In this document: positions 11,992-33,277 of the stretch, piece by piece | Layout: every line of letters starts with the position of its first letter | Position numbering within the stretch: position 1 is the stretch's first letter | From: Callorhinchus milii | Taxonomy: Eukaryota | Direction: 5' to 3' | Length of the DNA stretch: 64,000 nt | NCBI RefSeq assembly: GCF_018977255.1 | Contig: NW_024704742.1 | Location: forward strand, 103,914,001-103,978,000 | Notes under the pieces: model-generated | The model's input: only the letters and a program-made list of their open reading frames with translations | Database searches by the model: none | Told to the model about the DNA's origin: nothing | Made by a program: the position numbers and the translations under genes

Positions 11992-12167
11992 TCATAGGTC
12001 AAAGCATTTCATAATTGCATCTCGATCAAACTTGAAGCTGAGGAAGGCAGTCGATGAGAAACTGAAGTCAGAGTTTCCATTGCTGGAATCTGAGAGGTCA
12101 GAACCAGATCTGCATGTCCCAGTAATGTCTAAAAGCTGATTAGAGCTGCACAGCTCACAAACTGCAT
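11992..12167 (-). CDS. DCP2: DCP2 exon 11, last coding exon (...FSFSSTAFLSFKFDRDAIMKCFDL*)
   Basis: gttcag| acceptor; TGA at 11992-11994; conserved Phe-rich C-terminal motif AFLSFKFD..AIMK..DL. Confidence 0.94.
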
Positions 12168-12281
12168 CTGAACGTGAGAAAAAGGATAATCAGAGATGTC
12201 ATTAAAAGCAGGTTACAAATTTCTACAATATCAAATGTTGCACAGATAAAAAAAAATATACATATTTGAAGTTGAACTTAC

Positions 12282-12333
12282 CAGTTTCAAAATTGTCCTG
12301 AAGTCGCCTTGGCTGAAGCTTTTTATCAGATTT
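12282..12333 (-). CDS. DCP2: DCP2 exon 10 (KSDKKLQPRRLQDNFET-D)
   Basis: tttgtag| acceptor and G|gtaagt donor; 52 nt; matches human KCEKKLHPRKLQDNFETD. Confidence 0.94.
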
Positions 12334-14473
12334 CTACAAATAAAAAAAAATCCAGCATTAAGCCAACTTTACTGGATAAGGAGAAACATTCATGGTATTA
12401 ATGTGTGGTGCAATAGATAACACCTTCACCAGGGTAGTGCAGCATAGTATCAGATCTAAACCAAGTGGTCAGATAATGAAAGCAAGGATCAGAAACCTTA
12501 GATCATGTTTCAGGTAACTCCAGACAGCTAGTAAAGACCTTCAACTACTGGTTCTCAAGGAGAGAAAATGTGCAAAATTAACTTATTTTGAAAAAAAACA
12601 AAATAACCATATGATATTTGATGATTTCTCTACACAAAAGCAACATGGTAGATATAACAGTAGCAGTATATAACAGTACCACTTCCAGACGTGGTAATCA
12701 TTAAAGAAAGAGCACAATAAAATGGAAATTTGGGAATGCATTTAAATTCCAATTCAATATTTTTTCTCACCACCTCACAAAAGTACTTGGGCCAAACAAA
12801 ATATTACATTAACTACCACAGGTTAATCATTCTCATTTTAAAATGCAGTTCAGACATAGAAATTGGTCGTCTTCCAACTATATTGGGGGTGGGGGGGATT
12901 AAATCCAACATTCGCCATGCAGTGATCACATTGGTCTTGCAGTTTTCCCAATCCCTTGCTTGGAAAGCATACCTCAATTCTGTTGAAAGGGTGCAGCAGC
13001 AAAAACCCCAGTGATAAACTTTATGGAGAGAATAAATTTAAAATTTAAAAACAATAATGACCACATCTTTAAAGAGATACCGACATTCAACACACAAATG
13101 AATTGTGGCATGTACAGAAAGTGGTGAGAATCTTGTTGCCAGATCAATGGAGGTTTTAGACAAACTTGAATTGCTTCCCATCACTTCAGCCAGTAAGTGT
13201 GCTTGTGGAAGCATTTCGCACGTTTTAATGCATCTTGACCCGTCACCACATACACACTTACTGCCAAGCCACGGAATAACATTGCATTGCAGGAAATTAA
13301 GTTTTTCTGTGCATGCAGTGACAGATCAAGACTAAGTTTCCCACAGTTCAATGCAGCCAGTTAGTAATGAAGAATAAAGGACCAGCATTACAACATCGGA
13401 GATAATTTACTTATAAAATACAAACTTATAAAAGAAATCTAAGTGGTTTTGATAGAAAACTGAATGGCACTTGAGTGCATGTATTACTTGGGTGATTATA
13501 AGATTTATGAAGACTTACGCTGTTTTACTGTATCACCACTTCTTGAGGGAGGGAGGGGAGGGAGGGAGGGAGGGGAGGGATAAGAATAGGTAGGTGCAGC
13601 TGCTGGCCTCCTCAATCGGAAAATACAATTCCAGGTCTGTGTACCGTATGAGATTGTGAGTTTTGTGCACCCCTGGAATTTTTGTTAATATAAAGGTACG
13701 ATAAGCAAAGTTTAAGAGTACTGTAGGAAAAGGCCTAATAAAACATGCTGAGACTTACTTTAATGTCAGTAAGATTGCCAAACCTGAGAGGCTGGATGAT
13801 TTATAGCTTCAGCTACAGATGGATTACCAAAGTCCTAAAGAATCACAGCACTTCCTAATTTGATATAGAACTTGAGCTCTGCCACGTTTCTGCCCTCTGC
13901 CCTCCAACCAGCTTATATCTAACCTACAGCTGTGCTTCTTCAACTTGCTTGAACCAGGGTTCTCAGTACAGAGCAGACAATCCCAGCGATTTAAACAGTC
14001 CTCAAGGCAGGTTCCAACAAGCAAACTTAAGATAGGCTGCACACTTCTTGAAACTGCTGATTTCTTGAACAAGCACATCTCAAGGCCATCAGTGAGAAAA
14101 CTCCATGACAAGGGGATACTTGACTTACTGCTTCCAATTGCTTTAAATTTGTTTCTTATCCAGTTACACATTCATACACAAAAACAGTGAAGCATTGTCA
14201 TGGTTGAGTTTATTATAGACCTAGATATCTCCACTCCGCCATATCTGATGACGCTACACTCAATTCAGAAGTCTTGAATATTGATCACTGATAGTTAAAA
14301 TGTGTTCCTATTCTCCAACGATTCCTTTCTTCTCTGCAAAAAGGCTAGTATTGCATTGTTTCAGGATGAAATGTTTTCAGAATTAATATTTGCAGCGATA
14401 AAATGTGGAAAGGAAAAACACTAATATTTCATTTGCAATTGACAGCCATTCCTCACCAAAAGCAAAAACTCAC

Positions 14474-14581
14474 CAATATCTGATATTGCTTTATTTGCTG
14501 ATCGTTTACTCCATTAGACTTCTTCTTTTGGTTGGGAGAGTCTTGGTGCTGCTTTCTGCCATTACCCCGCACATTATGTGA
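14474..14581 (-). CDS. DCP2: DCP2 exon 9 (SHNVRGNGRKQHQDSPNQKKKSNGVNDQQIKQYQIL)
   Basis: ttttattag| acceptor and |gtgagt donor; 108 nt; RGNGRKQ.QDSPNQKK is conserved with human. Confidence 0.93.
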
Positions 14582-16018
14582 CTAATAAAAATAAAACAAA
14601 ATCCAGGTGTTCAAAAATGTGAATAAAACTGCAGAATGTTGCGATCAGAATGGACATGCTTATACTAAATAAAAACAGACCCGATAATCCACAGGTTAAT
14701 ATGCAGAAGAAACAAATCTTCCAATTATCCAAAATAAGGAATCCACAACCTAACAGTTTAGGAGGTAACTCACTTTCTTCCAAGTCTCAAGACCACCAAT
14801 TACGTCTGGAAAATTGAATTTTTTCAGTTTGTGGCTCAACTGCTAAAACTTGAGACAGGAGTTGTATCTCAACAGAAGAACAGCTGATACAACCTCCTGT
14901 TGCACCTCCTTTTAATACTCATAAAACAGCCTGTTGGCAATGGAAATGCCTGTACCACAGACCACTTAGCACTCCTGGTGAAAATTTGTTAGGGTGAGAA
15001 ACAGTCACAAGAAAGAAAAAGGTAAACAAATTATGATTTTATTTAAAAATCACTAATGGAAGTTAGAACTATACAAACCCATGTATGAATTAGAACTAGT
15101 CAGCTGCAAAACTAGATTTGCCAATACACAGATGCAAACCTAGATTTTTGAAATCCAGTGGCAAACTGCAGTTTCAGCTCACAATTTGATTTTGGATTCT
15201 ACTGTAGGTCAAATACTACAAAAACTGTGCAGAAGCCCCATAATGGAGAAGTCTTGGTAGCTCTTAATGTCCTCCCAAGGACAGAACTAGATGTAGGAAA
15301 AATTTTAAAACTTCCACAAAATTAAATCGACTTCACAAACCTTTTATTTACCCTGAAAATGTAGCAAACATCAAAATTCCAAATTTTAGTTTTTAAACTG
15401 ATATTCACACAAAAATTATGCCTCCAACTCGTGTACTTTACATCAAAAGGAAAGCCACACCATACAATATAGGAAATACAATTCTGTAGGGGTAGATTAT
15501 TAAAGGAATAAGATGTCTGTAAATGTGAGTATTTTCCCCACAAACATTTAAGTTACTGAGCAACAATTACAACTTGCATTATTCAGCATACAAGTACAAA
15601 GACTAGGATTTTCAAAATTGAAGTACTGAAACTGAACCTGAGAACCTTTGTACATTCAGCATTACCAAATAAACACTGCATGTAGTGCTCCAGAGGTATT
15701 AAGGAGGTTAGCGAAATGGATTACAATTAAAAGATCTGCCAAAATGTAGTAAACTGGTGAATAACTTTCTCTTGTCCTCCCACATTTCCTAAGCAGGAGA
15801 TACAGTATAAAACACAACATCTGCCACAGCTAATTACCCTGTGTTCCCAGAATTCCAGCCAGCAGCTACAGGAAGCAAAGACACTGATCAGACCCACCCA
15901 CACAAGATTAGCAATTTTGCATCATCAAGAGATAAATTTACTACAAGAGGAAACTATTTTTTTTCTTTATGACTTCTCCCTCACAATAAGACAATACGTT
16001 TAAAGAAATAGAACTCAC

Positions 16019-16157
16019 CTTTGACTTTAAAGGCTCAGAAATGTCATGTGGATTGTTTGGGCTGAATGGCTTTGATTGTGATTTGTGTTTAACTGAGCCT
16101 GCCCATTGATCTGCCGTGCACCCATCAAGTAACTGCTGGTTCTGTTGTGTTTTGGAC
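16019..16157 (-). CDS. DCP2: DCP2 exon 8 (SKTQQNQQLLDGCTADQWAGSVKHKSQSKPFSPNNPHDISEPLKSK)
   Basis: ggacag| acceptor and AAG|gtgagt donor; 139 nt; DQW..KH motif as in the human low-complexity C-terminus. Confidence 0.9.
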
Positions 16158-16440
16158 CTGTCCAAATAAATTAAATATGTTAAGATTTTTGTGTTATTCA
16201 CCACCAAGTAAAAATTATTTTCTATTCCAATTTTAATCTCCTTCAAGTACAGGGTTTTTAAACAAACTTTCGAGTTTGTAATTTCTTTTTAAAAAATCAT
16301 TAAATAAGGACACAGAGAAACCTGGCTAATCATCACATATTAAATTTTAGGTGTTAGATTACGAAGTTAAGAGAACAGCATTCCCCACAAAGTAATAGTG
16401 GAAAACTGTTTGTCTATAACCTAAATATGTTATCTAATAA

Positions 16441-16556
16441 AAATCATCAAATTTGCTGAATTAGTGCTTGTGTATAAATCTATATTGTCCAGTCTGTCTG
16501 TCAGACTACACGATATAGATTTACACGCAGCACTAATTCAGTAAATTTAATGATTT
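16441..16556. repeat. 116 bp imperfect palindrome in DCP2 intron 7
   Basis: Left arm aaatcatcaaatttgctgaattagtgcttgtgtataaatctatattgtccagtctg versus reverse complement of right arm aaatcattaaatttactgaattagtgctgcgtgtaaatctatatcgtgtagtctg; loop about 5 nt. Confidence 0.9.
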
Positions 16557-16675
16557 CTTCCATCCTTGCATTTGATATAGCGCTTTTCACGTCGGGAGGA
16601 CGTCCCTCAAAAAGAACCATTCAAATGATTTTTAAAACGATTAGAATATTTTTTTAACCTTAAAAACAACCTTAC

Positions 16676-16786
16676 CTTACACCTACTTTATCCAAAACAG
16701 TTTTGGACGGAGTTGCGTTGTTCGATGCAAGACCATCACTGTCTGAAGAGTCTCCGTAGTTTTTGGCCAGCCAATCTCTTAAGGGT
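16676..16786 (-). CDS. DCP2: DCP2 exon 7 (PLRDWLAKNYGDSSDSDGLASNNATPSKTVLDKVGV-R)
   Basis: gcacag| acceptor; the donor AG|gtaagg was chosen because it is the only nearby GT that keeps frame with exon 8; 111 nt. Confidence 0.9.
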
Positions 16787-17551
16787 CTGTGCAATAACAA
16801 AAACCTAGCATTTGTAAACATTTTTCAAAAGAACGTTCATAGAAATAAAACTTGATATTTTTATAGCACTTCCTCTTTGAAACATCTCAGAACACTTCAA
16901 GTAATTACTGTGCTGAGCAGTGACTATTTTTGTAGGTTAATGCTGCCATTTGCATTAACAAACTTCTACAGACAGTCAAGGTATGAAAAGACAATTTGGA
17001 TGACCGTTGGCCAGATTAAGAGAAATTCCCTGCTCTTATTTGGGGAAAAACAAACTATCTGCACATGCTTGACCTAGTTCTAAATTATTACTGGACAAAG
17101 AAATAGTGACATTTATTTTTGGCTTATAGCTGTGCAATAGGCACATGAAAGCTAAAACATAACCATTAGTTATGGAATGTTCAGCATGAAGCTGCATGAG
17201 TGCAAAATGCCTTAATTTGCACAACAGCTTTATAGGTTTCCATGAAAGCATGGAAAATCAATCCATTATACAAAGAAAAATAATTCAATAAACAAAACAT
17301 ATTTTACATGAGCACTCAATGTTGGTTAAGATATCAGTTCCTTCTCTTTTAACAGCAGTTAAACCAACTGAAGCAGCAATAAGTTATACAATTTTAAGAG
17401 CCGATTATTGCATGGATGTAAAACATTTGACGATATCAAACATCAATATGAGCAAGTATGTTCAATCCCAGATTTATTCACAATGCCCCAAAAAACTATT
17501 ATTCAACTTTGTTTCTCACTCCTCCGCCCACCACATACCCATTAATCATAC

Positions 17552-17664
17552 CTTATAAAAGGAATAGCCATGAAAAACTTGTTGGGTGCTAAACCCAGTT
17601 TGGACTTGGGAGTCATGTCATTCCTATGACATGGCAGCTTCTCGATGGAAAACCATTCAATATT
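17552..17664 (-). CDS. DCP2: DCP2 exon 6 ([38 protein letters not shown]; Box B region)
   Basis: ttgcag| acceptor and AG|gtatga donor; 113 nt; matches the recalled human peptide. Confidence 0.96.
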
Positions 17665-18417
17665 CTGCAAAACAAGTTTGTTAATTAGCAAACAATACTC
17701 ATTTTTGCTCCCCCCATAAAAATCAAACTTTTTTACTCTCTTCTAAATGCACCAAGTACATGCTGTGATGAGATTCCAAACACCCTGCAGTACTTCCAAG
17801 GGTCATGTTTCACTTGAATCAGCAGTCTGTTTGCTTATTTGGGTATCACAGGTGACCCCAATCCATTGCTCACCTAATGCTCACGTTCCAGCATGGTCAC
17901 TGACCCTCCAACCCAAATTCCAAGAGCAATCATAGCACCCATATTGCTAACCAAACAAGACAAGATACCACACAGATCTGGGATCTTCTTGGCCTTTATA
18001 ATTCAGCTTTATACCAGGCAGTGTTTTTTTTTTTTACAAACAACAAGATTACATCTGTATAGCGCCTTTCATGTCGGGAGGACATCTCAAGGCGCTGGAC
18101 AGAGTACAGCATTTCAGTCCTGAGCTGTGGTCGGGGGGGAAGGGAGGGGAGGTGGCCGATGGCATGGTCGAAGAGGAGGGTCTTGAGGCAGGACCTGAAG
18201 GAGGATAAGGAATTTGAAGAGCCTCAAGGTTGTTTAAACATTCGCTGCATTGTATTAAAGAAATCCTGAACTAAAGAAGCTTGTGATTGAATGGCAGATT
18301 TCTGAAAATTCCACGAAAATGTGACAAAGGTTCCACAGGATTACCTAGTATCAATGGTATATGCTAACCTTAAATTTGGAACTCAGTAAAATAGAAGAAA
18401 TTTGCAATAATCTCTAC

Positions 18418-18570
18418 CCTGATTTCCTTTCGAGTTTTGGGGTTAAACTTTGTCTCCTTTGGAACCCCTGGGATTATGTACAAGCGAGCCAACTGGTCAT
18501 TGATTCTTTGTTCAATGAAGTCATCCTTGCAGATACGGTCCCTTATGTCAAAGCCAGTTTCTTCTAGAAC
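18418..18570 (-). CDS. DCP2: DCP2 exon 5 ([51 protein letters not shown])
   Basis: ttttcag| acceptor and |gtagag donor; 153 nt; completes the Nudix box [23 protein letters not shown] (GX5EX7REUXEEXGU). Confidence 0.96.
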
Positions 18571-19483
18571 CTGAAAATAAAATGTAAAAAACTCAAGACA
18601 ACAAAATATTATAAGATATTTAAAAGGAAAATAATTGGAAAATAAAAATCACAAATATAAACGCTCATGTTCAAATTGTGATACTTTCAAATTGCTTGAA
18701 TCCAATAATTACAATGACTCAGATACATTTAACTTAACAATGGAAGAAAAGCAACATTGGGGACCCAACTATTGGAGCACTTTCCCTTAGGTTACTTCAC
18801 TAAACATTGCAGCATGTGGTTCAATGACCCTCTACAGGAAAGCAATATTTCTAAAAACATTTTTAAAAAACTGTGTGAATAATCATCTGTTGATTAGAAA
18901 CGTGATTTATACCTCATCGGAAAGGTCTTGCACGTAGGAGTGACATGGGCATATTTGTTTTCGGGTATCTGCTATCGTTCATGAGTTATGACTTAAAATT
19001 AATTTCAGTTTCACGTTTTTCGATGCAGTTACACCTGGTGGCCGCTGGCTCAAAGTGGTACTGTGACATTGTGCAGTTACACCTGGTGGCTGCACCGGCT
19101 GACTGTGCTGCTATGGCATCGTGTGTCACAGAGCACGCATGTAGCCAAGGGGCCAAAGAACACAGACGAACCTAAGCCGTGGCAACAACAACAAAATTAC
19201 ATTTTTAAAGCGCCTTTCATGTCAGGAGGACGGTCCCAGTGATTATAAATTGTACATTTATATTTATCATTATAAAGATGCCTAAGCAAAAATCAAACCT
19301 TTCAAGGATAAGTAAGTGTGTGTCTATGTGTCAATCTACATTCCATATTGCATCCTTTAGTAACAAGCGTAGCTGCAACAGATACAGCTAGTAGATACAT
19401 AAATCTACATTAACAGGTTAATCTGGACTGGATTAACATTAATTTAAATAAAGATGCTTTTATACACAAAAAAGTAATCTTAC

Positions 19484-19582
19484 CTCTCTCACAGCACAGT
19501 CATGTGGGGCTTCCTCTTTATTCACTTTGCCTTTCGGAAACCCCCATCCAGATTTTGCCAGATAGCCTTGCACAAGTAGTGC
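19484..19582 (-). CDS. DCP2: DCP2 exon 4 ([33 protein letters not shown]; first part of Nudix box)
   Basis: cacag| acceptor and |gtaaga donor; 99 nt; translated by hand. Confidence 0.96.
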
Positions 19583-22166
19583 CTGTGTCACAGAGGGTGT
19601 GTGGCGTGAAAAAAAAATCAGTTCCATCTATATGCATTCATGTTAACACATTTATAATCTGTATTGATAGGAGGGAGGTAAGGGGAAGGGAAAGATACCA
19701 TTACTGCAATTTTCCTCCACACCGGGTTCTTTGCTTTCCTATTACTACAATAACAATTTGAACTTATATAGCACCCTCCACACAGGGTAGCGTCTCAGAG
19801 CACTTAACAATGGCGAAGCCTGACTCCGAGCCTGGGAGGGGGAGGAGGTCAAAGAGGAAAGTTTTCAGGCGGGACTTGGAAGAGGGGAGAGAAAGGGCAA
19901 GGCGGAGGGTGAGGATTTTGAAGTTGATCTGTTTGTTGATAGGGAGCAGTGGAGCCTGGCTAGAACCGGTGAAGTGTGAGTATGGAGTTTGGTCCGGATC
20001 AGTATGCGGGCAGCAGAGTTTTGAATGAGCAAAGTACTACTGACAAAGGCAACACACAAGGTGTGACTGTTGCATTCAGTGACTGTGACCGAGGAGAGCC
20101 TTTATTCCATCTCAGAAGGTAATGAAATCTAGCTAAGCTCTTAGTGACTATCCTCCGTGTGGGGGGGGGGGGGGGAGGTAAAAGAGTTTAGCAGGGTATC
20201 CATGGAGCTGAACTAATTCCAATGTACATGTTTCTTAGTAGGACTTGGGGAGGCAGACCAGTCATTATGGGCAAGGATTTTTTCCACTCAGCTCCCATTA
20301 ACCCTGCAAGCCCAAATCCCAGTGGGTTGGGTGGTCCTAAGCTGGGCTAGCAGCAGGAATGTTTCAAAGCATTATCTGCCAATGGCAAGCTATGCAATTT
20401 TAGCTGATCAGATTCCAGCAGGACCTCAATGCACATTCTGGGGTCTCCAAGCCTTGGCTCTCCCCAACCTGTACCTAATACTCTCTGCTAGGTAAGCAGG
20501 GGGTTTCCCTCCAAGGAAAGAGTGCACATTCTATTCCAACACCTGGGAATTTCCATGTGTAGGTGAGATATATGGAACTTTCAGTTTGGTTACTCTTAAG
20601 CATGGTGATGGGTTTTGCATATCTCAAGACACCCGGCTGACCAAAAAAAAGCTAACTGAGCCCTCTCCTCTTCCTTCCCCTCCTTCGCAGTCTCCAGCTG
20701 TCATGCCTGTAGGCAGATTGAGCCACGAGCCTGGCTTACATGACAGTTACTCATCTTTGTCCCAGTTGCTTGTTATATAAGTTGGATCTGCAGCCAGAAC
20801 CTTGAAACTGTGTTTGGGTGAACATGCGAATATACAGTTGTTTTGATGTCAACCGTGTTTTGGGATTCCTAACAGGATGACATCCTAGTACCCACAGCCC
20901 CCAGGCACTTCAGAGCAGCTTCTGAAGTACCTGCAATATGAACATGCCATCACATTCTCATTAAACCACCATCTGTATTCAGAAAGTTCAAACATATTCA
21001 CAAACCAGTGTTGTGTTAATTGTGCTTCCAAATTGTAAAATGCACATCTGGCAAAAAGAGCTAAAACGCTGACAAGAGACAGATGGTATTTTCCTCACCA
21101 GCAATTTTTTTCTAGGACTCTTCCGACTAAGTTTAGCTTCATGAGTAACCAATGCGATGTTAGCAAATAAAAATCCAATTTAACAACAAACAGTCAAGTT
21201 CTAAACTGCAGGAGGAAGCAATTTGTTCTAAGATTACCACAATTCTATGCATTGGACAGTGTTATCATACTGAGAGGTCTCAAAGCACTTCATACAACAA
21301 GCTGCTTTGAACTGCAGTAACCTACATGGGGAAAGTCATTGTAATCAATCGTAATACAACTTTCCATATAAACGGTACAGAGAGCTTGCAGACCAAGCTG
21401 ACTGACATTAACAGATGAAGCCATAAAATCATTCCCTCTAGTTTTTGTCTCATTAAATAGTCCCATAAGTGACTAAAAAGGCCTGAACATAGGAATGTGA
21501 TCTATAATCAATGATTAAGTATGGCTATCTAAATTATAGGTATTTCCTTTATTTTATGAATGTATTAAAAATGACCTTCAAAAATATGAACATAGACAAT
21601 TTCCTATATATCTGGTTACCCACATTAGTCACTAAAATACAACTCAAATTTACTCCTGCAATTATTTTCTTTTAAATGCAAATGAACAAAAAATACCTCC
21701 ACTAAACCATAGTAATTTTGTACAGAGGCAGCTCTTCAAGACGTAGGACTTTATTGGACAACAATTTAGATTTCCATAATCCCTTCAAAGTGTTTGGCAA
21801 ACCAACTTCAATACAAGTATTGCTTTACCAAGATTCACTTATTCTAAGTCAGCACGTCAACTCTAGAGGATTGTGCACAGCAGAGAGAAGTACTTTTAAA
21901 AGGCCTTTACCTTTAAAAATAGAGCTAACTAAAATTATACCAGTTACCATTTTGAAATATGGTTTGCTTCCAAACTTGGTGAGGGCCAACAAGTGAAGAC
22001 GGTTTTACTTACCATGAACCTTGGCCTTTCCACAAGATACAAACACAGCATTCAAACTAGCCACTTCTACATCATGATCAGTGATAGACACATGTTTATT
22101 TTCTCAAACAAAGCGAGTACATTTAGAATCTCAAATATACAGCAGCCACTCCAGACAGTTACTTAC

Positions 22167-22294
22167 ATTTTCCAGTGTTTCATCCAGTATAATTGCACCA
22201 TATGTAGGGACTCCCATCTTATACTCCTTCCAATCATCTAAAATATTTTCCACATCATCCCCTTTGCGAAGTAAAAACGGACAGTGATTGAAGA
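22167..22294 (-). CDS. DCP2: DCP2 exon 3 ([43 protein letters not shown])
   Basis: Starts after the non-canonical AC acceptor; 128 nt; ends AAT|GTAAGT; frame is continuous with exons 2 and 4. Confidence 0.96.
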
Positions 22295-24400
22295 GTTCAA
22301 CTGCGGTTAAGGAAAACACTAACAAGACGAGTTACATTGCATTTGACATTTGTTTTTTTTACAAAGGAAAATACAGCAACACCCAGTCAAAGTTGTATAT
22401 AAGTCTACATATTCTGTGACTGTCAAATAATTCTGAAAACACTTTATAGTCAATTTTTCTTCTTCCCATTTGAACCCCCACTCCCACCACAACCACCAAT
22501 TTTCTTTCCCTCCTCTGTTGAAGGTGCAGACGCATGTTGGGGTCCTTTAACACAGGTACTGAGTTCCCACAAGCACCTCATCAAAATTGTCATTTTTTTA
22601 AAGTCACAAGCCCAAACACCAGTCATTTATGAACGATTCATTCAACACATCATCGTCAAGTCCAATTACATCCTCACCCTTACATCTGATTACATGCAAT
22701 GAAGGATTGGCAAGGATCATTGGACAGGAACCAGAAATCCTGGTTGGGTTTTCTCCTCCTCAATCCAGAAGATTTAAAACCTGGATGGAGCCGCAACTGA
22801 GATCAGCTAACTCAGCACAAGCAAGTCTTGGTCTGTATGGACCAATATAATCCATACTGTGTATCCACTGTGTATCCACCCACTGATCCCCATCAATGAA
22901 TCCCTGATAATAATACTAAACAAAATTCATTGCATAATTTGTAGTGAGTTATTACACCCATTGATTCAGGGCTGTACGTTTTTGACATAAAATAAGTGAA
23001 ACACCAAGTGAAAATAATCAACCTTTCAAGGAAACTAATCTATGCCATTCCCAGAAAAATTGGTGATAACAAAAAGTGTCATGGAATAATACAAACATGT
23101 TATTGATGAGTAACAAAAGCACTGTAGAAGGGGCATTACATACAAACAACTAATAATTGTGGGCCATTCAGATTTCCACTTGAATACTTGTTTTTGGCTG
23201 TCGTTTTTAGAGGGACTAAAAATGAAATTATCATGATGCTGTGAATTGCCAGATAAAAAATAAAAATAAGGTATACTAATTAAAATAAATATTGATCTTG
23301 TATAGAATTAGACATCAACGGTGTGGAAGGATTCATTTCATAGTATATATTGTGAGATAGCATAGTTACAACTTGATTATTCAAAGTTATCTGAAGTGCA
23401 TCTTCCATGGACTGAAGTACTGCCACCCGCTTCATACAACGAGTTGTGTTAACATTTCATGTTTTGTCTCCAAGTTTCATTGGTCAAAGATCATGAAGAC
23501 AAAAAAGTTATTCCAAGATTAATCAAATCTATCAGTAACATCTTAAAGATAATGTTAGTGTCTGTAAAAAAAATGTGATGTGGGAGGAGTGAATCTCATC
23601 TAAGCATGTAAGATACTTAATGGTACAAATGGGGGTGAACCAAAAGTATTACTTCAAAAGTAGGTCAATAAATAAGATTAGAGGACCCCATGAGTGCAAA
23701 AAAATTAGAGCTGAGGTCAGGACAGCAATAAACATTTAGAATAATCTGCCAACATATACAATAGAGAAAATCATTTGGGGTCATTCAAAACAAGGTCAAC
23801 GGTAGAATACAATAAGCTTTGGTGGATGGGACAGCATTTCCTTACACTGTTACACAAAAAATGCAAAGCATCTCCAGTTGAGATGAAAACATTAGAGCCC
23901 CACTGCACTTCATACAGAGGTCCTTTATTTCAACTTTCTTTTTCCTCCATCTTTCCGTGCATTTGAAAAAATATGTCTTTTCCATGTATCAATAAAAAAT
24001 GAAACTCAACCAAATTTCGCATGAAAAACGTACAGCCACTGGGATTTTCTGACACAACCCTCCCAAAATACAGGCAAAACTGGCATCCAAACTTGCAATT
24101 CTCTTGAGTTACAAGGCCATGCAAAAAAAATCATTTGCTAAAGCTATACTTCAGGATAAGGTTTATAGAGCTTTATCCCAGAGTACTCCAGCTTCACATA
24201 CTACTTACATGCACTTGAAATTCTTCCATGCATTGGAACTGATCATTTGCAATGGCATTAACCAGACTAAAACTATTATTTGGAAGAAAAGTACTCCCCA
24301 GATTAACCTATAGTACTGCTGTAGTTCTAATGGAGACTTCCCATGATTTTTTCAATAAAGTGAATATTTTGCTGAAGTACAGCTATTATCAAAAGGATAT
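22295..24400 (-). other. DCP2: U12-type (minor spliceosome) AT-AC intron, DCP2 intron 2
   Basis: 5' end ATATCCTTTT; branch sequence TTCCTTAAC at 22306-22314; 3' end ...TTGAAC. Joining these termini gives in-frame G|TC (Val), collinear with the homologue. Confidence 0.95.
22730..22880 (-). mobile_element. LF-SINE-like ancient SINE fragment inside the U12 intron
   Basis: Reverse complement contains TGTGCTGAGTTAGCTGATCTCAG, a motif I recall from the LF-SINE consensus; related pieces at about 29915-30030, 46410-46530, 48460-48830, 54205-54300 and 9965-10200. Confidence 0.6.
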
Positions 24401-24552
24401 CTGATTTGGCAAAATCTCTTATCCCACACTGAGGCAATCCTGGTGTATTCTGCAAGTAGAAGTCCAAGTAAAACCAATGGGCCAGCTCAATCTGAAAGCA
24501 CACTCGAATCGCATTGTCCCTTTCTTCACTTGGAATGTGCAGAATGAATCGG
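24401..24552 (-). CDS. DCP2: DCP2 exon 2 (Box A domain; [50 protein letters not shown])
   Basis: Acceptor ttgtacag|C; 152 nt; peptide is visible in ORF 24327..24587; ends at the U12 donor G|ATATCCTTTT. Confidence 0.97.
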
Positions 24553-27258
24553 CTGTACAATAGATAAGCCGAATAATTACCCTTCAATATTAGTTGTTAT
24601 TGCATTATTTCCATTTCTAAAAATATTTCAACATCCTGATTAATATTCTATCACACTACAAATGCTTGCATTAACTGATTATCAAGCTTATCAGAATGAA
24701 ATCTAAAGACGTTGCAAAAGTTAGCATAAACTTTGATCAGATATCAGACAAGCATTATTGTTTTTGATCCCCCAAATAAATGTGTCTGCATTCCCAAAGA
24801 AGAATGCAGTGTAATATGGAAGGCTTCAAGAAATAAACAACTTAATGCCAAGTATGCAGAGCAACACAGGAGATTCCAAGACCAAGGAGACACCATATCA
24901 TACTTGCTGTTCAAATGAAAAATCTGACCTATTTTGCATACTGTTCAATGGGACATGCTAAATCCACACATGTTATAGAAACAGGCCTCATTTTATGATG
25001 GCTGTTCACAAGAAAATAATCTTGGTAGGATTTATGTAAGGATGAATAAAACATTAACAATTGCTAAAATTAGGCAATTATTTATGTGAACATTAAAGAA
25101 AACAATCATCTGTAAAAATGCTGTCTTAATTCATACATGTTTCTAATGCTTAAATTATGATACATCATACAGAAAAACTAAAATGTGAAATAGAGGATAT
25201 TAAATGACCTCAACAAGATACCAAAGAATGGGAACTTAACGTTTTCATAACTATTAAAAGGAAAAAGGCTAAACGTAAGATCCAAAAATGTGTGAACACA
25301 ACTATCCTGTCTCTTGCACAGAATAAAAATATACTTTTCTTTAAAAAACATACTGAACATACTGCAGGAAGACTGAAATCTGTATAAAAAAAACTTGGTA
25401 CCCATTCAGAGTGTGATTCAGTTCACATAAAAGCACTTAGCAGTATTAAAAAAAAGTCCAGTTATGGTCCATGTAAATGCATCTAAACCATATAAAATAT
25501 ACACCATGAACAACAAGAGTAGAACATTTTTAATTTTAAGCCTGTAACTAATAGCATGCATAACCAATCTTACTTTCTCTATCCAGATATTACATATTCT
25601 GTAAATGTACTAAAACTTACACAAAGTTTAATACAACCTATTCATCGCTGATCTACATTCACCTAGGTTTTGCTGATCGAATTTGGTTTACAGTGAATCT
25701 TAGTGGAAACTGAGCCAAAACACAGTAGTTGAAGAAACATCATTGAAGGAATACTCTTCATGGAGGATGGGCAAGGTAAGCAAGGTCTCCTTGGGACTGA
25801 GCTGGCTCCAAGGTGATGTTGCAATGGAATGACAGAATGGATTCTGTGGTGGTATTGGGTTCCTGAGGCAGGCAAGCCACAGTACTCAAAGGCACTAATG
25901 ACAGACCAACCAGCCAGGCTTGACAGGAAGACTTGGGAGAGGCATGGATTCTCCCACTCGGCTCCAACTAACCCTGCAAGCCAAAACCTTAACGGGTTGG
26001 GTGGTTGGTCCTAGAAGGACAATCAGCAGGAAGCTTTCCACTATGCAGATCCCTCATCCTTGGCTCTCGACAATTTGTGTGCACCTAATACTTTCCAGAA
26101 TTAGATAAGCAGTATTCACCCTTAGGAGGGAGAACTCAACTGAAAAAAAAACACCCTGTTAAACCCGGGAGTTGGCCAACAGTGGAACTAACAACTCTGT
26201 TAAACGTGGGATCCAGATGTGGCTAGAAAAGACCAGCTTTAATCCAAATACTAGGAAAATAGGAAGTCCTTACTCAAGAGTTTTTAATAATTCAAGTTTT
26301 TTTTGAACAAAGACCTCATTGGTAGAGCTAATACAGATGTCTTTCATCATGTTCATGAAAGATTTTGTGGCCAAGTTGATATGTGTAGATGTCTACATGG
26401 CATATAGTTTGCACATATAAACCTATAAGTAAGGACTTTTGATTCACCTGTATAAAGTCAGGAACCCACAAACAGAGGAACCAAAGTCACTTATATTCTA
26501 TGCTTAACAATTCATTTAATTATGGAGGCAAAATGAAATAGTTTCAAATGAATTCAATAAGCAGGCCTACAAAAGGCACGTCACAATCCTGGCAATATTA
26601 CTGTGTTCCTGTACTGTCAATGTCTGTTCTTTCTTCTTATGATATATCTCGAATCTCAGAAAACCTCAGTTGGGAGTTCTGCCTTCCTGGAGGAATGAAC
26701 AACGTACCCGCTCTCAAGCCAAATCTAACTGACTAAACACAGCAATGTAGCTCGACTATACTTTATATCATAGTTATCTACGTCAGGCTGCTCAGTGCAT
26801 GTTAGCTGACTGATTGGACTGTACAGCAGCAATTAATTCACAACCCTAACAGACACAAAAAACTGCAGCTACAATAATAAATTCACTTCTTCCTTGGCCA
26901 ATTTAACTGTTCATAACACAATACATAACATATTGCATCATATCATTTTATCTAGCACCATACCAGCTACCCTGTGACACCTGTTATGTTTAGATAGAAG
27001 TTCCACAATTTACCTTAATTAAAAGATTTTAAGAATAAAGATTGTAGTTCTGCAAGTCATCCCACATCAGCTAACAAGCATAAGCAACCTTCACTTAAAT
27101 AAAAAAAATTATAAACAGAATTGTAATTCTGGGGATCAGCTTGACACTAGCCAACAAGCATAAGCATACGTAACTTAACCAAAACTTTTTTTTATTCTTA
27201 ATACAGTAGGATTATAACAGCTATGTTCAATTTGCTTTTTAAAATCAAATACATGTAA

Positions 27259-27570
27259 AGATAATAATAATAATCCCTGCATTTTATAAAGCACCTTATC
27301 ATGTCTTCAAGAGGCGTCTCAAAGCACTTCACAGAATATACTGTAAAGTGAATTGACTGTATATTTTGTGGGCGAAACGCAGGAACCAATTGTGACAGCA
27401 GTCATCGATTGAGTGACCAAATTATTTTTAGAAAAGCAATTGGTCAATCAACTAACAACTGGGTTCCTACTTACTGCCAGGTAAACAGAGGCATGTGGAG
27501 TAAGGAAACTTGTCCAACATTTCACCCTGCCGGGAATCAAACCCATGTCCTCTCACTTGCAAAGTGCTCT
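27259..27570 (-). mobile_element. SINE copy in DCP2 intron 1
   Basis: Collinear with 61955-62329, with small deletions. Confidence 0.82.
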
Positions 27571-30126
27571 ACTGATACTGAACCAGGTTAGAATCTTTTT
27601 TAAATACTGACATAAACAGCATCAATAATAGATACTGAATATAAACACACTGTTTATATAACTTGATTTCATTTTATACACATCGACGATATTAAAATTT
27701 AGCCTATTAAGTATTACTTATTGGTTCTTTGATTTTATATATTCAGTTTCACAATGCTATTCCTAAAATATAAATTTCAATTGTTGATCAAAGTTGCCAA
27801 AAGTACATAAGGTGAACAGAAGAAACCACTGAGGCAAAGAACAAGTCAGTATTAATGATTTCTGGTTAATTAAAAGGGCTTCCAAACATAATTAGCATCT
27901 GGCAGAGGTTCAGCTTTTTTTTAAAAAAACATTTTTTCCCATTTACTTCAATCATTAGATTTCTGGAAGAATTTCCCTCACAATGTTTGTAGTTTCTTTA
28001 TTGGCTGTTAATTTCTTTGTGAGTCTTGCTCAAGGCAAATGTTATACAGGTTTCCCAGCGTCAATCCTTTCCCACACTCCTTAAAATGTCCCTTCTTTCT
28101 GCCACTCCCAAGTCTACTTGTAATTATAGTCTGATGTTAGCTATTTTGCCTATGAACCTGATCACCTGTGAAACTTCTGGATCACAAAATAAAATGAAAC
28201 CAATGAATTTCATATAACAAACCATAACAGAAAACATCTCAAAGCACTATAAAGCAGGGTAAGTGCTGCAGGCAGGGCAGCTAAGTGTTAAACAGCCAGT
28301 TTATAGCGTAGATACTAGTACAAACTTCCACCTTCACATTTAATAAGTTATCTCTGAAGCTGTTTCTAAATAAATGTCTGCAAGCAACAACAACAACAAC
28401 AACAAGATTCCATTTATAGAGCGCCTTTCACGTCAGGAGGACGTCCCAAGGCGCTGCACAGTTGGGTCATGACCCGAGCAGGGGGGAAATGGTCAGGGTG
28501 AGGGGAGGGAAGGGAGGGAGCGAGGAGGGGGGAAATGGTCAGGGTGAGGGGAGGGAAGGGAGGGGGCGAGGAGGAGGAAGAGAGTCGAGAGGGGAGCTGA
28601 AGGCACGGTCAAAGAGAAGATTAACAAACAGATTAATTGAGAAACTCCCCCAAGTAAATATACATGCTTTGGAAGTTTGCCCAGTCTGCACAAATTTGGT
28701 TTCAGGCAATTCCCAAATCTAATTCCCAGATTTTTTCCTCCTCGGTAAAGCATACAGGAAGTTCTTGATTAGTTCAACTGCAACCCATTGCTTTTGATGG
28801 GGAAGGAGAAATGAGGGAACCTTCAGCCTACATCTTATGCCTCCAATTTTTCTTTGCATTCTCAATCTGACTGGATTGAGTTTTCCTACATGCAGGAATT
28901 TAGACCTTCCTCCTCAACAACAAATCCATCTGTCTTCCTCCTATTTGGTTTGTTTGGTTTTTAACCCTACAATTATCAGTTCTTATTCATTTATGTTTAT
29001 TAAGCTCTTCTGCATCATTTAGGTTTTGTGTTTGATATTTTGGTAAAGTTTACAAATAAGCTTCAAACAGGTTGAAAGATTTGAATTTCTGTGGCTTAAA
29101 TTCACTTATTTTAGCCAAGCCTCAGTTCCTACTGCTCACTCTTGAAGCTTGGTAAATAATAATCATAATTTTTTCTCCCATTTCCATTATTTTCTGAACA
29201 TAAATACACAGCTGATAGAATTGAAATAAGGAAGCCTGAAAATCAAAAACAGAAAATTAACTCTGGATTGAATCACAAATTAACTGCATTACCAATTCTG
29301 ATCTCAATCTGTATGTTCTATTGGTATGCTAACATGCTATGCACCAAAGTGGAAATGACAACAGCTCATGCTCAAAAGTGCCCTATACAGCAAAATCCAA
29401 ACCAGTCTGTTAAGTGACACTGTAAAGAGAAACTTCTCAAGGAAGGTAGAAGAGGGAAAGGAGCCGAGGAAAAACAAGTAGATGCACGATAATAACTGAT
29501 AATAATAATCCTTGTTTTTGATATAGCACTTTTCACGGCTTCTAGACGTCTCAAAGCGCTTCACAGGATACAGTGGACTGTAAAGTGAATTGACTGTATA
29601 TTTGTGGGCGAAATGCAGCCGCCAATTGTGCACAGCAGTGTCCCACAAACAGTTGTGGATTGAAGTAACCAATTTATTATTGTTTTGTTTTCTTGAGGGA
29701 TTATTATCATAACTAAATATAGTATTCCCAAAGGACATTCTCATGCTCAGCGACATTTTCGTGCTAAAGGGTGGAAATAAAAATAAAAACAGAAACAAAC
29801 AAATAAGTTTGATGTGCTCAGCTGCTGATGGAAACAAACGCTAAGCTTCCCCTTGACAGCTCAATTTATAACATCACTGCCATCATGAAACTGAACTATA
29901 CAGATTTAGAAGAATCCAGTTGGTTTCAGTGTGTGCCCAGTTAGCTGATCTCACCTGGGGCAATAGTGGGCATATTAGGCTCAGGCAGGGAGAAGGATCA
30001 CCGATGTCATCTAATTCCTGTTAGCATCCAGAAGATATGTGGATACAAGACTCACACATGATCAGGTTCTACTGCAATTCTATCCACAAATACATAGCCT
30101 GCTGGCACTCACCTGCACATTATACA

Positions 30127-30427
30127 TTATAATAATAATAATAATAATAATCGTTGCATTTGATATAGCGCTTTTCACGTCTGGAGGACGTCCCAAAGCG
30201 CTTCACAGAACACACTGTAAAGTGAATTGACTGTATATTTGTGGGCGAACGCGGCAGCCAATTGTGCACAGCAATGTCCCACAAACAGTCGTAGATTGAA
30301 AATGACCAATCTATTATTGTTTTTTTTTTGGTTTTTTGGAGGGATTATTATTAGGCTCTGTGTGGAGTAAGGAAACTTGCCCAAGGTTTCGCCCTCTGCC
30401 TGGAATTGAACTCAGGTCTCTCACTTG
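30127..30427 (-). mobile_element. SINE copy with internal deletion (a second partial copy at about 29496-29706)
   Basis: (AAT)n tail, body and tRNA-head remnant present; central ~60 bp missing compared with the other copies. Confidence 0.8.
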
Positions 30428-31343
30428 GACAAGATATTAAAGAGCATAGAGCATCCAACTAAAGCAAGATGAATCAGCGTGCCAGGCCAGGGGTAGAAAA
30501 GCCCCCAAAAAACTGCATTCTGAAAATTGTACACTCAGTAATGTTAAAGGATTTTCACATTTTGAATATACAGTATAAAGAAACAGCAATGTGATCGCAC
30601 ATCAAAGGCTTGGCAGAACAAATGTATGATGCACATTTCTCTAACCGTGACAAATCACAGATAAGAATACAAACAATAAAGACAATAACAAAAATACACA
30701 GAAATTATATATACATATAAAAACAACCCCCGGCCCGGTCCCAGCCTGCGGCCCACTCTGATATACTATAAACCCTCACATGGAGAGAAACTCTATTCAA
30801 ACTTGCGCCATGTCTGAGGATCCCAAGGCACAGAGATTGTTGGGAGGAACTGAATAGCGAAATACAGCAACACGAGAGATACAGAGACCATTCAACCCCG
30901 ACACCTCCCTTCATCCCCACAACTTACTTCAATTTTAATGATGAAAACAACTAACCAGCGCCAACTCCATGACCGTCTCCCTCCCTCCCTCCCTTTGTGC
31001 TTTTCTCTCCTCACCAGATACTCACTCACATACACACTCACTCACTCACTCACATACACACACACGCGGGGGGGGAAGGGGGTAAAGAAGCGAAAGTGAA
31101 ACTCCCTTCACTCTGTCGCCATTTGAGAGCAATAACAGTGACTAATGTCTATGTATCGGGAGCGGCCTCCAGTGTAACTGGGTCTCCAACTCTAACCCCT
31201 GGGCTCGCTGCCGCCGGGCCGGGCCGGGCCAGGCCGGGCCTAGTGTGGTCTGACCGGGGGGGACTCTCGAGCCTCAGCCCCACAAACACAAACACGGCTC
31301 TGCTCTGGGGAGTGTGTGACTGCCCTCCCGGACTGCCGTGTAC

Positions 31344-31396
31344 CTGCACAGGTCATCCAGCACCTCTCCCGGGATCTCCACTCGCTTGGTCTCCAT
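31344..31396 (-). CDS. DCP2: DCP2 coding exon 1 (METKRVEIPGEVLDDLCS)
   Basis: Reverse complement reads ATG GAG ACC AAG CGA GTG GAG ATC CCG GGA GAG GTG CTG GAT GAC CTG TGC AG|GTA. Nearly identical to the vertebrate DCP2 N-terminus; 53 nt, phase-2 GT donor. Confidence 0.96.
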
Positions 31397-32460
31397 CCCC
31401 GGCCTCAGCCCCGGCCTCCCCCTCCCTCAGCCCCTCCCCCAGCCCCGGCCTCCCCCTCCCTCAGCCCCTCCCCCGGCCTCCCCCTCCCTCAGCCCCTCCC
31501 CCAGCCCCGGCCTCCCTCAGCCCTCCTCAGCCCCGGCCTCCCCCTCCCTCAGCCCCTCCCTCAGCCCCGGCCTCCCCCTCCCTCAGCCCCTCCCCCAGCC
31601 CCGGCCTCCCCCTCCCTCAGCCCCTCCCCAGCCCCGGCCTCCCCTCCCAGCCCTCCCCAGCCCCGGCCTCCCCCTCCCTCAGCCCCTCCCCAGCCCCGGC
31701 CTCCCCTCCCTCAGCCCCTCCCCAGCCCCGGCCTCCCCCTCCCTCAGCCCCTCCCCCAGCCCCGGCCTCCCCCTCCCTCAGCCCCTCCCTCAGCCCGGCC
31801 TCCCCCTCCCTCAGCCCCTCCCCCCCCCCTCCCCCTCCCTCAGCCCTCCCCCAGCCCCGGCCTCCCCCTCCCTCAGCCCGCCTCCCCTCCCTCAGCCCCT
31901 CCCCCAGCCCCGGCCTCCCCCTCCCTCAGCCCCTCCCCCAGCCCCGGCCTCCCCCTCCCTCAGCCCCTCCCTCAGCCCCGGCCTCCCCTCCCTCAGCCCT
32001 CCCTCAGCCCCGGCCTCCCCCTCCCTCAGCCCCTCCCTCAGCCCCGGCCTCCCCTCCCTCAGCCCCTCCCCAGCCCCGGCCTCCCCCTCCCTCAGCCCCT
32101 CCCTCAGCCCCGGCCTCCCCCTCCCTCAGCCCCTCCCTCAGCCCCGGCCTCCCCCTCCCTCAGCCCCTCCCTCAGCCCCGGCCTCCCCCTCCCTCAGCCC
32201 CTCCCTCAGCCCCGGCCTCCCCCTCCCTCAGCCCCTCCCCCTCCCTCAGCCCCTCCCTCAGCCCCGGCCTCCCCCTCCCTCAGCCCCTCCCTCAGCCCCT
32301 CGGACCCTCCCTCAGCCCCTCCCCCAGCCCCGGCCTCCCCCTCCCTCAGCCCTCCCTCAGCCCCTCCCTCAGCCCCGCCCCCTCCCTCAGCCCCCTCCCT
32401 CAGCCCCGCCCCCTCCCTCACCTCAGCCCCGCCCCCTCCCTCAGCCCCGCCCCCAGCTCC
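31397..32460 (-). repeat. GC-rich minisatellite, unit ~34 bp (plus strand CAGCCCCGGCCTCCCCCTCCCTCAGCCCCTCCCC), about 30 copies
   Basis: Directly visible tandem array that begins at the base next to the DCP2 ATG; G-rich on the DCP2 sense strand. Confidence 0.95.
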
Positions 32461-32590
32461 GGCCTCACTGCCTCCCGCGGTCCGGCCCCGGAGCCTCCCC
32501 GCCCGCCATTCCAGCTGCCTTTGTGACGTAGGACTGATTGACAGCGGCGGAGCCGAGCACAGCGCTGCCTGTGTGACCTGTCACGAGGGT
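32461..32590 (-). promoter_or_regulatory. Probable DCP2 core promoter (CpG-rich, TATA-less)
   Basis: The only non-repetitive CpG-rich stretch directly upstream of exon 1. Carries YY1-like CCGCCATT (32503-32510), CRE/ATF-like TGACGTA (32524-32530) and PBX-PREP decamer TGATTGACAG (32535-32544). Confidence 0.65.
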
Positions 32591-33277
32591 TGGGGGGGAT
32601 TGTGGGGGGAAGTTGAGGGAAGGGGGATTGGGAGGGGGATTGTGGGGGGAAGGGGATTATTGGGGAGGGGATTGTGGAGGGAAGGGAGGGGATTGTGGGG
32701 GGAAGGGGATTATTGGGGGAGGGGATTGTGGAGGGAAGGGGAGTTGGGGGAAGGGGGATGTGGGGGAAGTTGAGGGGGATTGTGGGGGAAGGGGATTATT
32801 GGGGGAGGGGGATTGTGGGGGGAAGGGGATTATTGGGGGAGGGGGATTGTGGGGGGAAGGGGGAGTTGGGGGAAGGGGGATTGTGGGGGGAAGTTGAGGG
32901 ATTGGGGGAGTGGGATTGTGGGGGAAGGGATTATTGGGGAGGGGATTGTGGGGGAAGGGGAAGTTGAGGGCAGGGGGATTGGGGGAGGAAGGGATTGTGG
33001 GGGAAGTTGAGGGAAGGGGATTGGGGGAGGGGGATTGTAGGGGGAAGGGGGGTTGGGGTAAGGAGGATTGTGGGGGGATTGGGATTGTGGGGGAAGGGGG
33101 AGGGAGATTGTGGGGTGAAGGGGGAGTTGGGGGAAGGGAGATTGTGCGGGGTGGGGGAGGGAGATTGTGCGCGGGAGGGAGATTGTGTGGGGGAGGGGGG
33201 AAGGGGGATTGTGGGGGGAGGGGGATTGTGGGGGGAGGGGGGAAGGGGGATTGGATTGGAGGGGTATGGGAGGGGGA
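32589..33277 (+). repeat. G-rich degenerate minisatellite (GGGGATTGTGGGGGGAA-like units)
   Basis: Directly visible; the plus strand is almost free of C. Confidence 0.93.

Follow-up and report, generated by a model that had tools for sequence, protein, structure and literature searches.

Intron 2 of the DCP2 gene of Callorhinchus milii is a real, spliced intron of the U12 type that has AT-AC ends, and its ends, its splice joint, its reading frame and its orthology are established by the evidence set out below. The wider account that we favour, and that we regard as close to certain, is that this is an ancestral DCP2 intron of jawed vertebrates, read by U11 and U12, in which the terminal AC is chosen by its distance from the branch site and around which the major spliceosome permits a bypass splice to leak.

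The region analysed is a stretch of 64,000 nucleotides (here called the window), in which the coding span of DCP2 occupies 11992..31396 on the minus strand, from an ATG at 31396 to a stop codon at 11994-11992. The 11 coding exons specify a protein of 427 amino acids, on which Pfam places Box A at residues 11-93 and the Nudix domain at 98-210. The coding part of exon 1 (31344..31396, minus) ends at a GT donor that also serves the bypass splice discussed below, exon 2 (24401..24552, minus, 152 nt) encodes the core of Box A, and exon 3 (22167..22294, minus) is 128 nt long. Between the last two lies intron 2 (22295..24400, minus), which has a length of 2106 nt and is in phase 1. Upstream of the gene a G-rich minisatellite of about 1 kb (31403-32466, period approximately 34, some 30 copies) reaches to within 7 nt of the start codon of DCP2, and a second array, which is C-rich, is found just upstream of it at 32591-33276.

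The intron opens with ATATCCTTTT, that is with the donor ATATCCTTT (24392..24400, minus) followed by a T, and at the spliced border this donor matches the 5' splice site RTATCCTTT with no mismatches and agrees with the human and mouse 12-mer at 11 of 12 positions. The branch motif TTCCTTAAC (22306..22314, minus), which agrees with the mouse 12-mer at 10 of 12 positions, is of the form TTCCTTRAC and is separated from the intron end by 11 nt, placing its two branch As at 13 and 12 nt. The acceptor in use, as given by the transcript joint, is the terminal AC at 22295..22296 (minus). The donor, branch motif and terminal AC that had been proposed from the letters alone are thus all present, and the claim that AT-AC ends restore the conserved reading frame also holds, since the spliced model gives a 427-residue protein identical to the C. 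milii RefSeq entry XP_007895586.1. The same protein aligns without gaps to V9KRM2 at 99.8% identity, with one residue different. When exon 2 was used as a query against the PDB the sole matches were yeast Dcp2 chains, and skipping of exon 3 alone would lose the frame and bring a stop at codon 90. The nine other DCP2 introns are all GT-AG, and neither the donor nor the branch motif of intron 2 is found in any of them. One element of the original prediction, the lack of a strong pyrimidine tract, is less clear-cut: there is none in the 11 nt that follow the branch motif, but the pyrimidine share at positions -20 to -4 is 0.65, which falls inside the range of 0.59-0.82 found for the nine GT-AG introns, so this property is no distinguishing mark of intron 2. 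The pyrimidines near its acceptor are those of the branch motif itself.

Taken by itself, each motif is unremarkable in a sequence of this size. Within the 64-kb window the donor motif is found twice against an expectation of 1.59 and the branch motif once against an expectation of 1.56. The rough odds at fixed sites are much smaller, at around 1e-5 for the donor and 1e-4 for the branch motif, and the coincidence exceeds chance because both motifs sit at borders that are set independently by protein and RNA, and because both are absent from the nine other introns.

The transcript evidence comes from assembled contigs of four runs from three studies (X1, X3, X5 and X8), examined out of 14 runs listed. 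The type of these runs as RNA is a guess of the tool, although the presence of spliced joints means that all four contain RNA, and assembled contigs drop rare forms. The joint that the original prediction called for, linking 24401 to 22294 with 2106 nt skipped and an unambiguous cut, is present in contigs of all four runs, in which introns 3-7 also show the GT-AG joints expected of them. A further contig in X1 (22265-24430) covers the whole of unspliced intron 2 with both borders included. In X1 and X3 contigs extend over introns other than intron 2 as well, possibly as a result of pre-mRNA or DNA, and the X1 figures of 29.1 for the intron 2 contig, 18.9 for intron 3, 97.7 for the U12 joint and 187-268 for the later joints are depths that cannot rank introns.

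A number of other features of these introns can be recorded here. In the region 23924-24122 of intron 2 (minus strand) an AATAAA at 23929 follows closely on an isolated contig of X5 (23956-24122, 167 nt), which could reflect A-rich priming, pre-mRNA or an intronic 3' end; X5 provides no further cover of intron 2 beyond this contig. Four donor-like GT(A/G)AG sites are found on the minus strand of the intron, at 24208, 23845, 22683 and 22677, and the X1 intron contig has no break at any of them. In each of the four runs, short interspersed-repeat copies within the DCP2 introns (approximately 16560-16610, 18060-18170, 19180-19260 and 21270) have a very high depth and give rise to spurious cross-joints. 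RNA structure around the acceptors does not exceed that of shuffled sequences (z 0.11).

The intron, including its conservation, is already known. The suggestion that its ortholog would be recognised as U12-type in mammals is borne out, as human DCP2 is listed as a U12-intron gene in Table 1 of PMC1874599 and file 1 of PMC6717393 gives the 12-mers of the donor and the branch site for both human and mouse. Comparison with other vertebrates gives the same picture: in Tables S6 and S8 of PMC11347168 the human, mouse and zebrafish DCP2 introns are all classed as minor. The minor introns of these three species (the human intron at chr5:112985987-112992120) share gene, position and phase with that of C. 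milii. They differ in length, with 2106 nt in C. milii compared to 6134 in human and 3599 in mouse. In C. milii an AG lies between branch motif and AC; the DCP2 rows in the published tables are printed without the 3' terminal dinucleotide. The conservation had been put forward as the main novelty, but it is not new, because the orthology in Table S8 of PMC11347168 (column 225 of 675) already scores the C. milii DCP2 entry as 'minor'. The same source credits C. milii with 495 minor introns together with genes for U11, U12, U4atac and U6atac. No paper on this intron in Callorhinchus was found among the titles and abstract openings searched, a search that left subscription journals largely uncovered.

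The position of the donor is also reflected in the mistakes of gene predictors. The phase 1 intron follows the FAK(A/S) codons, and among the 120 exon 2 homolog records listed, 86 have the canonical residue spacing and in 34 the donor is translated as D-I-L, the same read-through that results from translation of the human exon end and donor. These 34 records come from birds, mammals, reptiles and one teleost, and some are fragments called on unspliced sequence. They indicate that the donor is conserved at the same place and that predictors stumble there, so that the mis-modelling that had been anticipated is real in other species; in C. milii itself, the three full-length DCP2 records are all correct at intron 2.

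What would follow if the intron were not removed? Computed translation agrees with the earlier expectation of truncation before the Nudix domain: the first in-frame stop is a TAG (24327..24329, minus) at codon 93, giving a product of 92 amino acids, of which 68 are native and 24 intron-coded, that ends inside Box A. The accompanying claim that the supply of the decapping enzyme depends on the minor spliceosome has to be divided. Dependence itself is upheld for the orthologous intron, which in PMC11347168 responds to minor-spliceosome loss in three of nine human conditions (with no response in the other six), three of six mouse conditions and one of two zebrafish conditions. According to PMC6800510 retention of the DCP2 intron in TALS increases from 0.5% to 24.9% in lymphoblastoid cells and from 0 to 0.8% in fibroblasts, and PMC8034651 gives retention values of 0.04-0.10 in three controls compared to 0.29-0.52 in three Roifman patients. 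The second part of the claim, that slow minor splicing acts as a regulated, rate-limiting valve that sets the amount of DCP2 with the retained RNA being destroyed, appears doubtful. It accords with the general model of U12 introns described in PMC3584512, with the strong rise in retention in the U4atac patients and with the X1 contig across the entire unspliced intron. Set against this, retention in human controls is 0 and 0.5% in two cell types and 4-10% in another set, and total DCP2 expression in three controls (25.7-36.6) overlaps with that in three patients (6.9, 7.4 and 56.6). With control retention low and expression overlapping between the groups, it cannot be concluded that the intron is rate-limiting in normal cells. 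Other introns, too, have contig cover in X1 and X3, from what may be pre-mRNA or DNA, and PMC10639083 argues that much of minor-intron evolution represents neutral processes.

Alongside the favoured removal of the AT-AC intron there are signs of a second route, from exon 1 directly to an AG inside exon 3 (22262..22263, minus), which lies 33 nt past the AC and after a pyrimidine-rich stretch. In X5 record 16 and X8 record 21 exactly 30 letters precede exon 2, and the last 7 of these fit the end of exon 1, which implies a branch of the assembly graph at that point. X5 record 15 starts at 22263 and has a 30-letter overlap with the end of record 16, and in X8 record 20 there are 28 non-fitting letters ahead of 22263. 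With exon 1 lying outside the compared stretch, the simplest reading of these breaks is an alternative route that leaves exon 1 and enters exon 3 after the AG at 22263-22262. X3, in which DCP2 is represented by one unbranched contig of 4844 nt, indicates that the bypass form is not seen everywhere.

A bypass mRNA built from the window contains three reading frames of interest. From the main AUG it encodes 19 residues, with a stop at codon 20. An internal AUG in exon 1 (31354..31356, minus), which is in the +1 frame and in a weak context, starts a frame whose product is identical to the RefSeq isoform X2, XP_042189833.1, a protein without Box A. A frame of 333 amino acids starts at the AUG of Met96 (22215..22217, minus), whose context is strong and which lies immediately ahead of the Nudix domain.

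The bypass junction is also found in the protein records of other species, where it is visible only if the frame happens to include an upstream AUG. The 335 DCP2 records considered are those that reach the start of the Nudix domain, a non-random sample made up entirely of predicted models. They include 244 that are canonical and nine in which exon 1, in the +1 frame, is joined to the internal exon 3 AG. Six of the nine are RefSeq isoforms that stand beside a full-length model (C. milii, Chiloscyllium punctatum, Pristis pectinata, Ahaetulla prasina, Crotalus tigris and Pantherophis guttatus), and the junction occurs in other models from Vipera latastei, Prionailurus iriomotensis and Balaena mysticetus. 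Seven of the 335 begin at Met96. A further seven, all from elasmobranchs (P0130, P0187, P0249, P0251, P0252, P0253 and P0254), reach the same AG from a different exon, through a common short alternative first segment. A search of the window for this alternative exon gave nothing convincing; the best sense match, near 23420 in intron 2, ranks 51 of 127,924 when 12 residues are compared, and 6 of 127,948 when the comparison is limited to the last 8. Five amniote records (P0211, P0223, P0288, P0292 and P0307) delete exon 2 in frame by means of a nearer site, with exon 1 joined a few bases into exon 3; C. milii has no AG at the site used by these models.

The bypass is most likely an ordinary leak around a minor intron, of Olthof category CAT3, and mostly unproductive. 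A more ambitious reading is that it forms a conserved spliceosome switch, in which the minor spliceosome would give full DCP2 and the major spliceosome would give an mRNA that escapes NMD and is reinitiated at Met96, producing a Nudix-only DCP2 without the Box A that binds DCP1. We consider such a switch improbable, and we give equally slim prospects to its extension to jawed vertebrates generally, whereby slow minor splicing would feed the bypass, translation would stop at codon 19-20, and the resulting enzyme, lacking Box A and unable to be activated by DCP1, would link the minor spliceosome to mRNA decay. The records do provide some encouragement, in that the same junction recurs in the nine records from a chimaera, a bamboo shark, a sawfish, four snakes, a cat and a whale, the seven elasmobranch records use the same AG and seven more start at Met96, while the contig breaks in X5 and X8 are compatible with it. 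The Met96 frame, with its strong context, would retain the whole Nudix domain, and PMC12776119 reports escape from NMD in LMNA and HBB when the stop falls within the first 21-23 codons. Furthermore, PMC8984151 describes Box A as securing product specificity, as part of a composite active site and as contacting Dcp1, with both the specificity and the contact changed by its loss, and on these grounds an enzyme without Box A would be poorly activated. However, the records are all predictions, and a GT-AG-only predictor would produce an identical join. Three out-of-frame AUGs lie ahead of Met96, the internal AUG of exon 1 is weak and is missing from the other eight bypass records, and the X3 contig shows no branch. 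The AG itself sits in conserved coding sequence, so that its conservation needs no splicing role. No paper on a bypass of DCP2 exon 2 was found among the titles and abstract openings searched, with subscription journals again largely uncovered.

The preferred reading of the 3' end is that the terminal AC is used, and yet an in-frame AG at 22301..22302 (minus) lies between it and the branch motif. This AG completes a CAG that ends at 22301, 6 nt before the AC, and it shows no sign of use. That it might be the true or common acceptor, making this an AT-AG intron and adding two residues to the protein, is very unlikely, despite its being in frame, having pyrimidines before it and looking like a standard acceptor. 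No matching joint occurs among the 15 listed (30 further joints fall outside that list, and contigs drop rare forms, so that low-level use may occur), the X1 contig 22265-24430 is unbroken at that point, and the two-residue insertion is found in none of 306 proteins; it is on the contigs and the proteins that this candidate was rejected. Its distance from the branch As is also just 6-7 nt, compared to the optimum of 11-13 nt for the branch-to-acceptor distance given in PMC3584512, where AT-AG is described as disfavoured; the AC, at 12-13 nt, fits both the optimum and that disfavour. That intron 2 is instead a U2-dependent AT-AC intron, of which examples exist (PMC1557818), or a chance look-alike, as the chance-level frequency of each motif alone might suggest, is scarcely credible given that both U12 motifs, donor and branch, are complete and sit at borders fixed by RNA, and given the response of its orthologs to minor-spliceosome loss.

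For the U12-type intron with its bypass leak the sequence of events may accordingly be pictured on the basis of its orthologs and the textbook mechanism, from which the roles of the snRNPs are taken. U11 would read ATATCCTTT and U12 would read TTCCTTAAC, after which a distance rule would pick the acceptor, such that the AC, 12-13 nt away from the branch As, is taken and the AG at 6-7 nt is passed. Removal of the intron gives full-length DCP2. If definition of exon 2 fails, the major spliceosome could splice exon 1 to whichever usable AG comes next, which is the one within exon 3, and the product would be a frameshifted mRNA without Box A.

Such a bypass has parallels in other minor-intron genes. 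It resembles the skipping categories CAT2-CAT4 of PMC6717393 and PMC8034651. Since its donor is a major one upstream of exon 2 and its landing site is in the exon downstream of the minor intron, it would come under the definition of CAT3, with the joint deduced from identity to XP_042189833.1 and the contig breaks. The human DCP2 event on record is of the CAT2 type, with both flanking exons skipped upon U6atac inhibition, unlike the C. milii bypass, which lands 33 nt inside exon 3 and comes from samples not known as perturbed. In MAPK12 (PMC8329584) the minor acceptor is reused, something that the DCP2 bypass cannot do as its minor acceptor is AC. With SRSF10 and Drosophila prospero, also described in PMC8329584, whether the product is full or truncated depends on which spliceosome is chosen, as it would with the DCP2 bypass too, but these are nested U2 introns with demonstrated regulation, whereas DCP2 involves exon skipping and a putative switch.

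In terms of its wider meaning, intron 2 adds little in itself, as one of approximately 500 minor introns in C. milii and one that is already catalogued. It does provide a useful annotation warning, because 34 of the 120 homolog records read through its donor. The bypass splice, the less familiar detail of the locus, represents one open lead. If it gives rise to a DCP2 without Box A in normal tissue, then the activity of the minor spliceosome would tune the quality of decapping as well as its amount, and, if true, this would be of relevance to the U4atac, CENATAC and ZRSR2 disorders, in which the human intron is retained.
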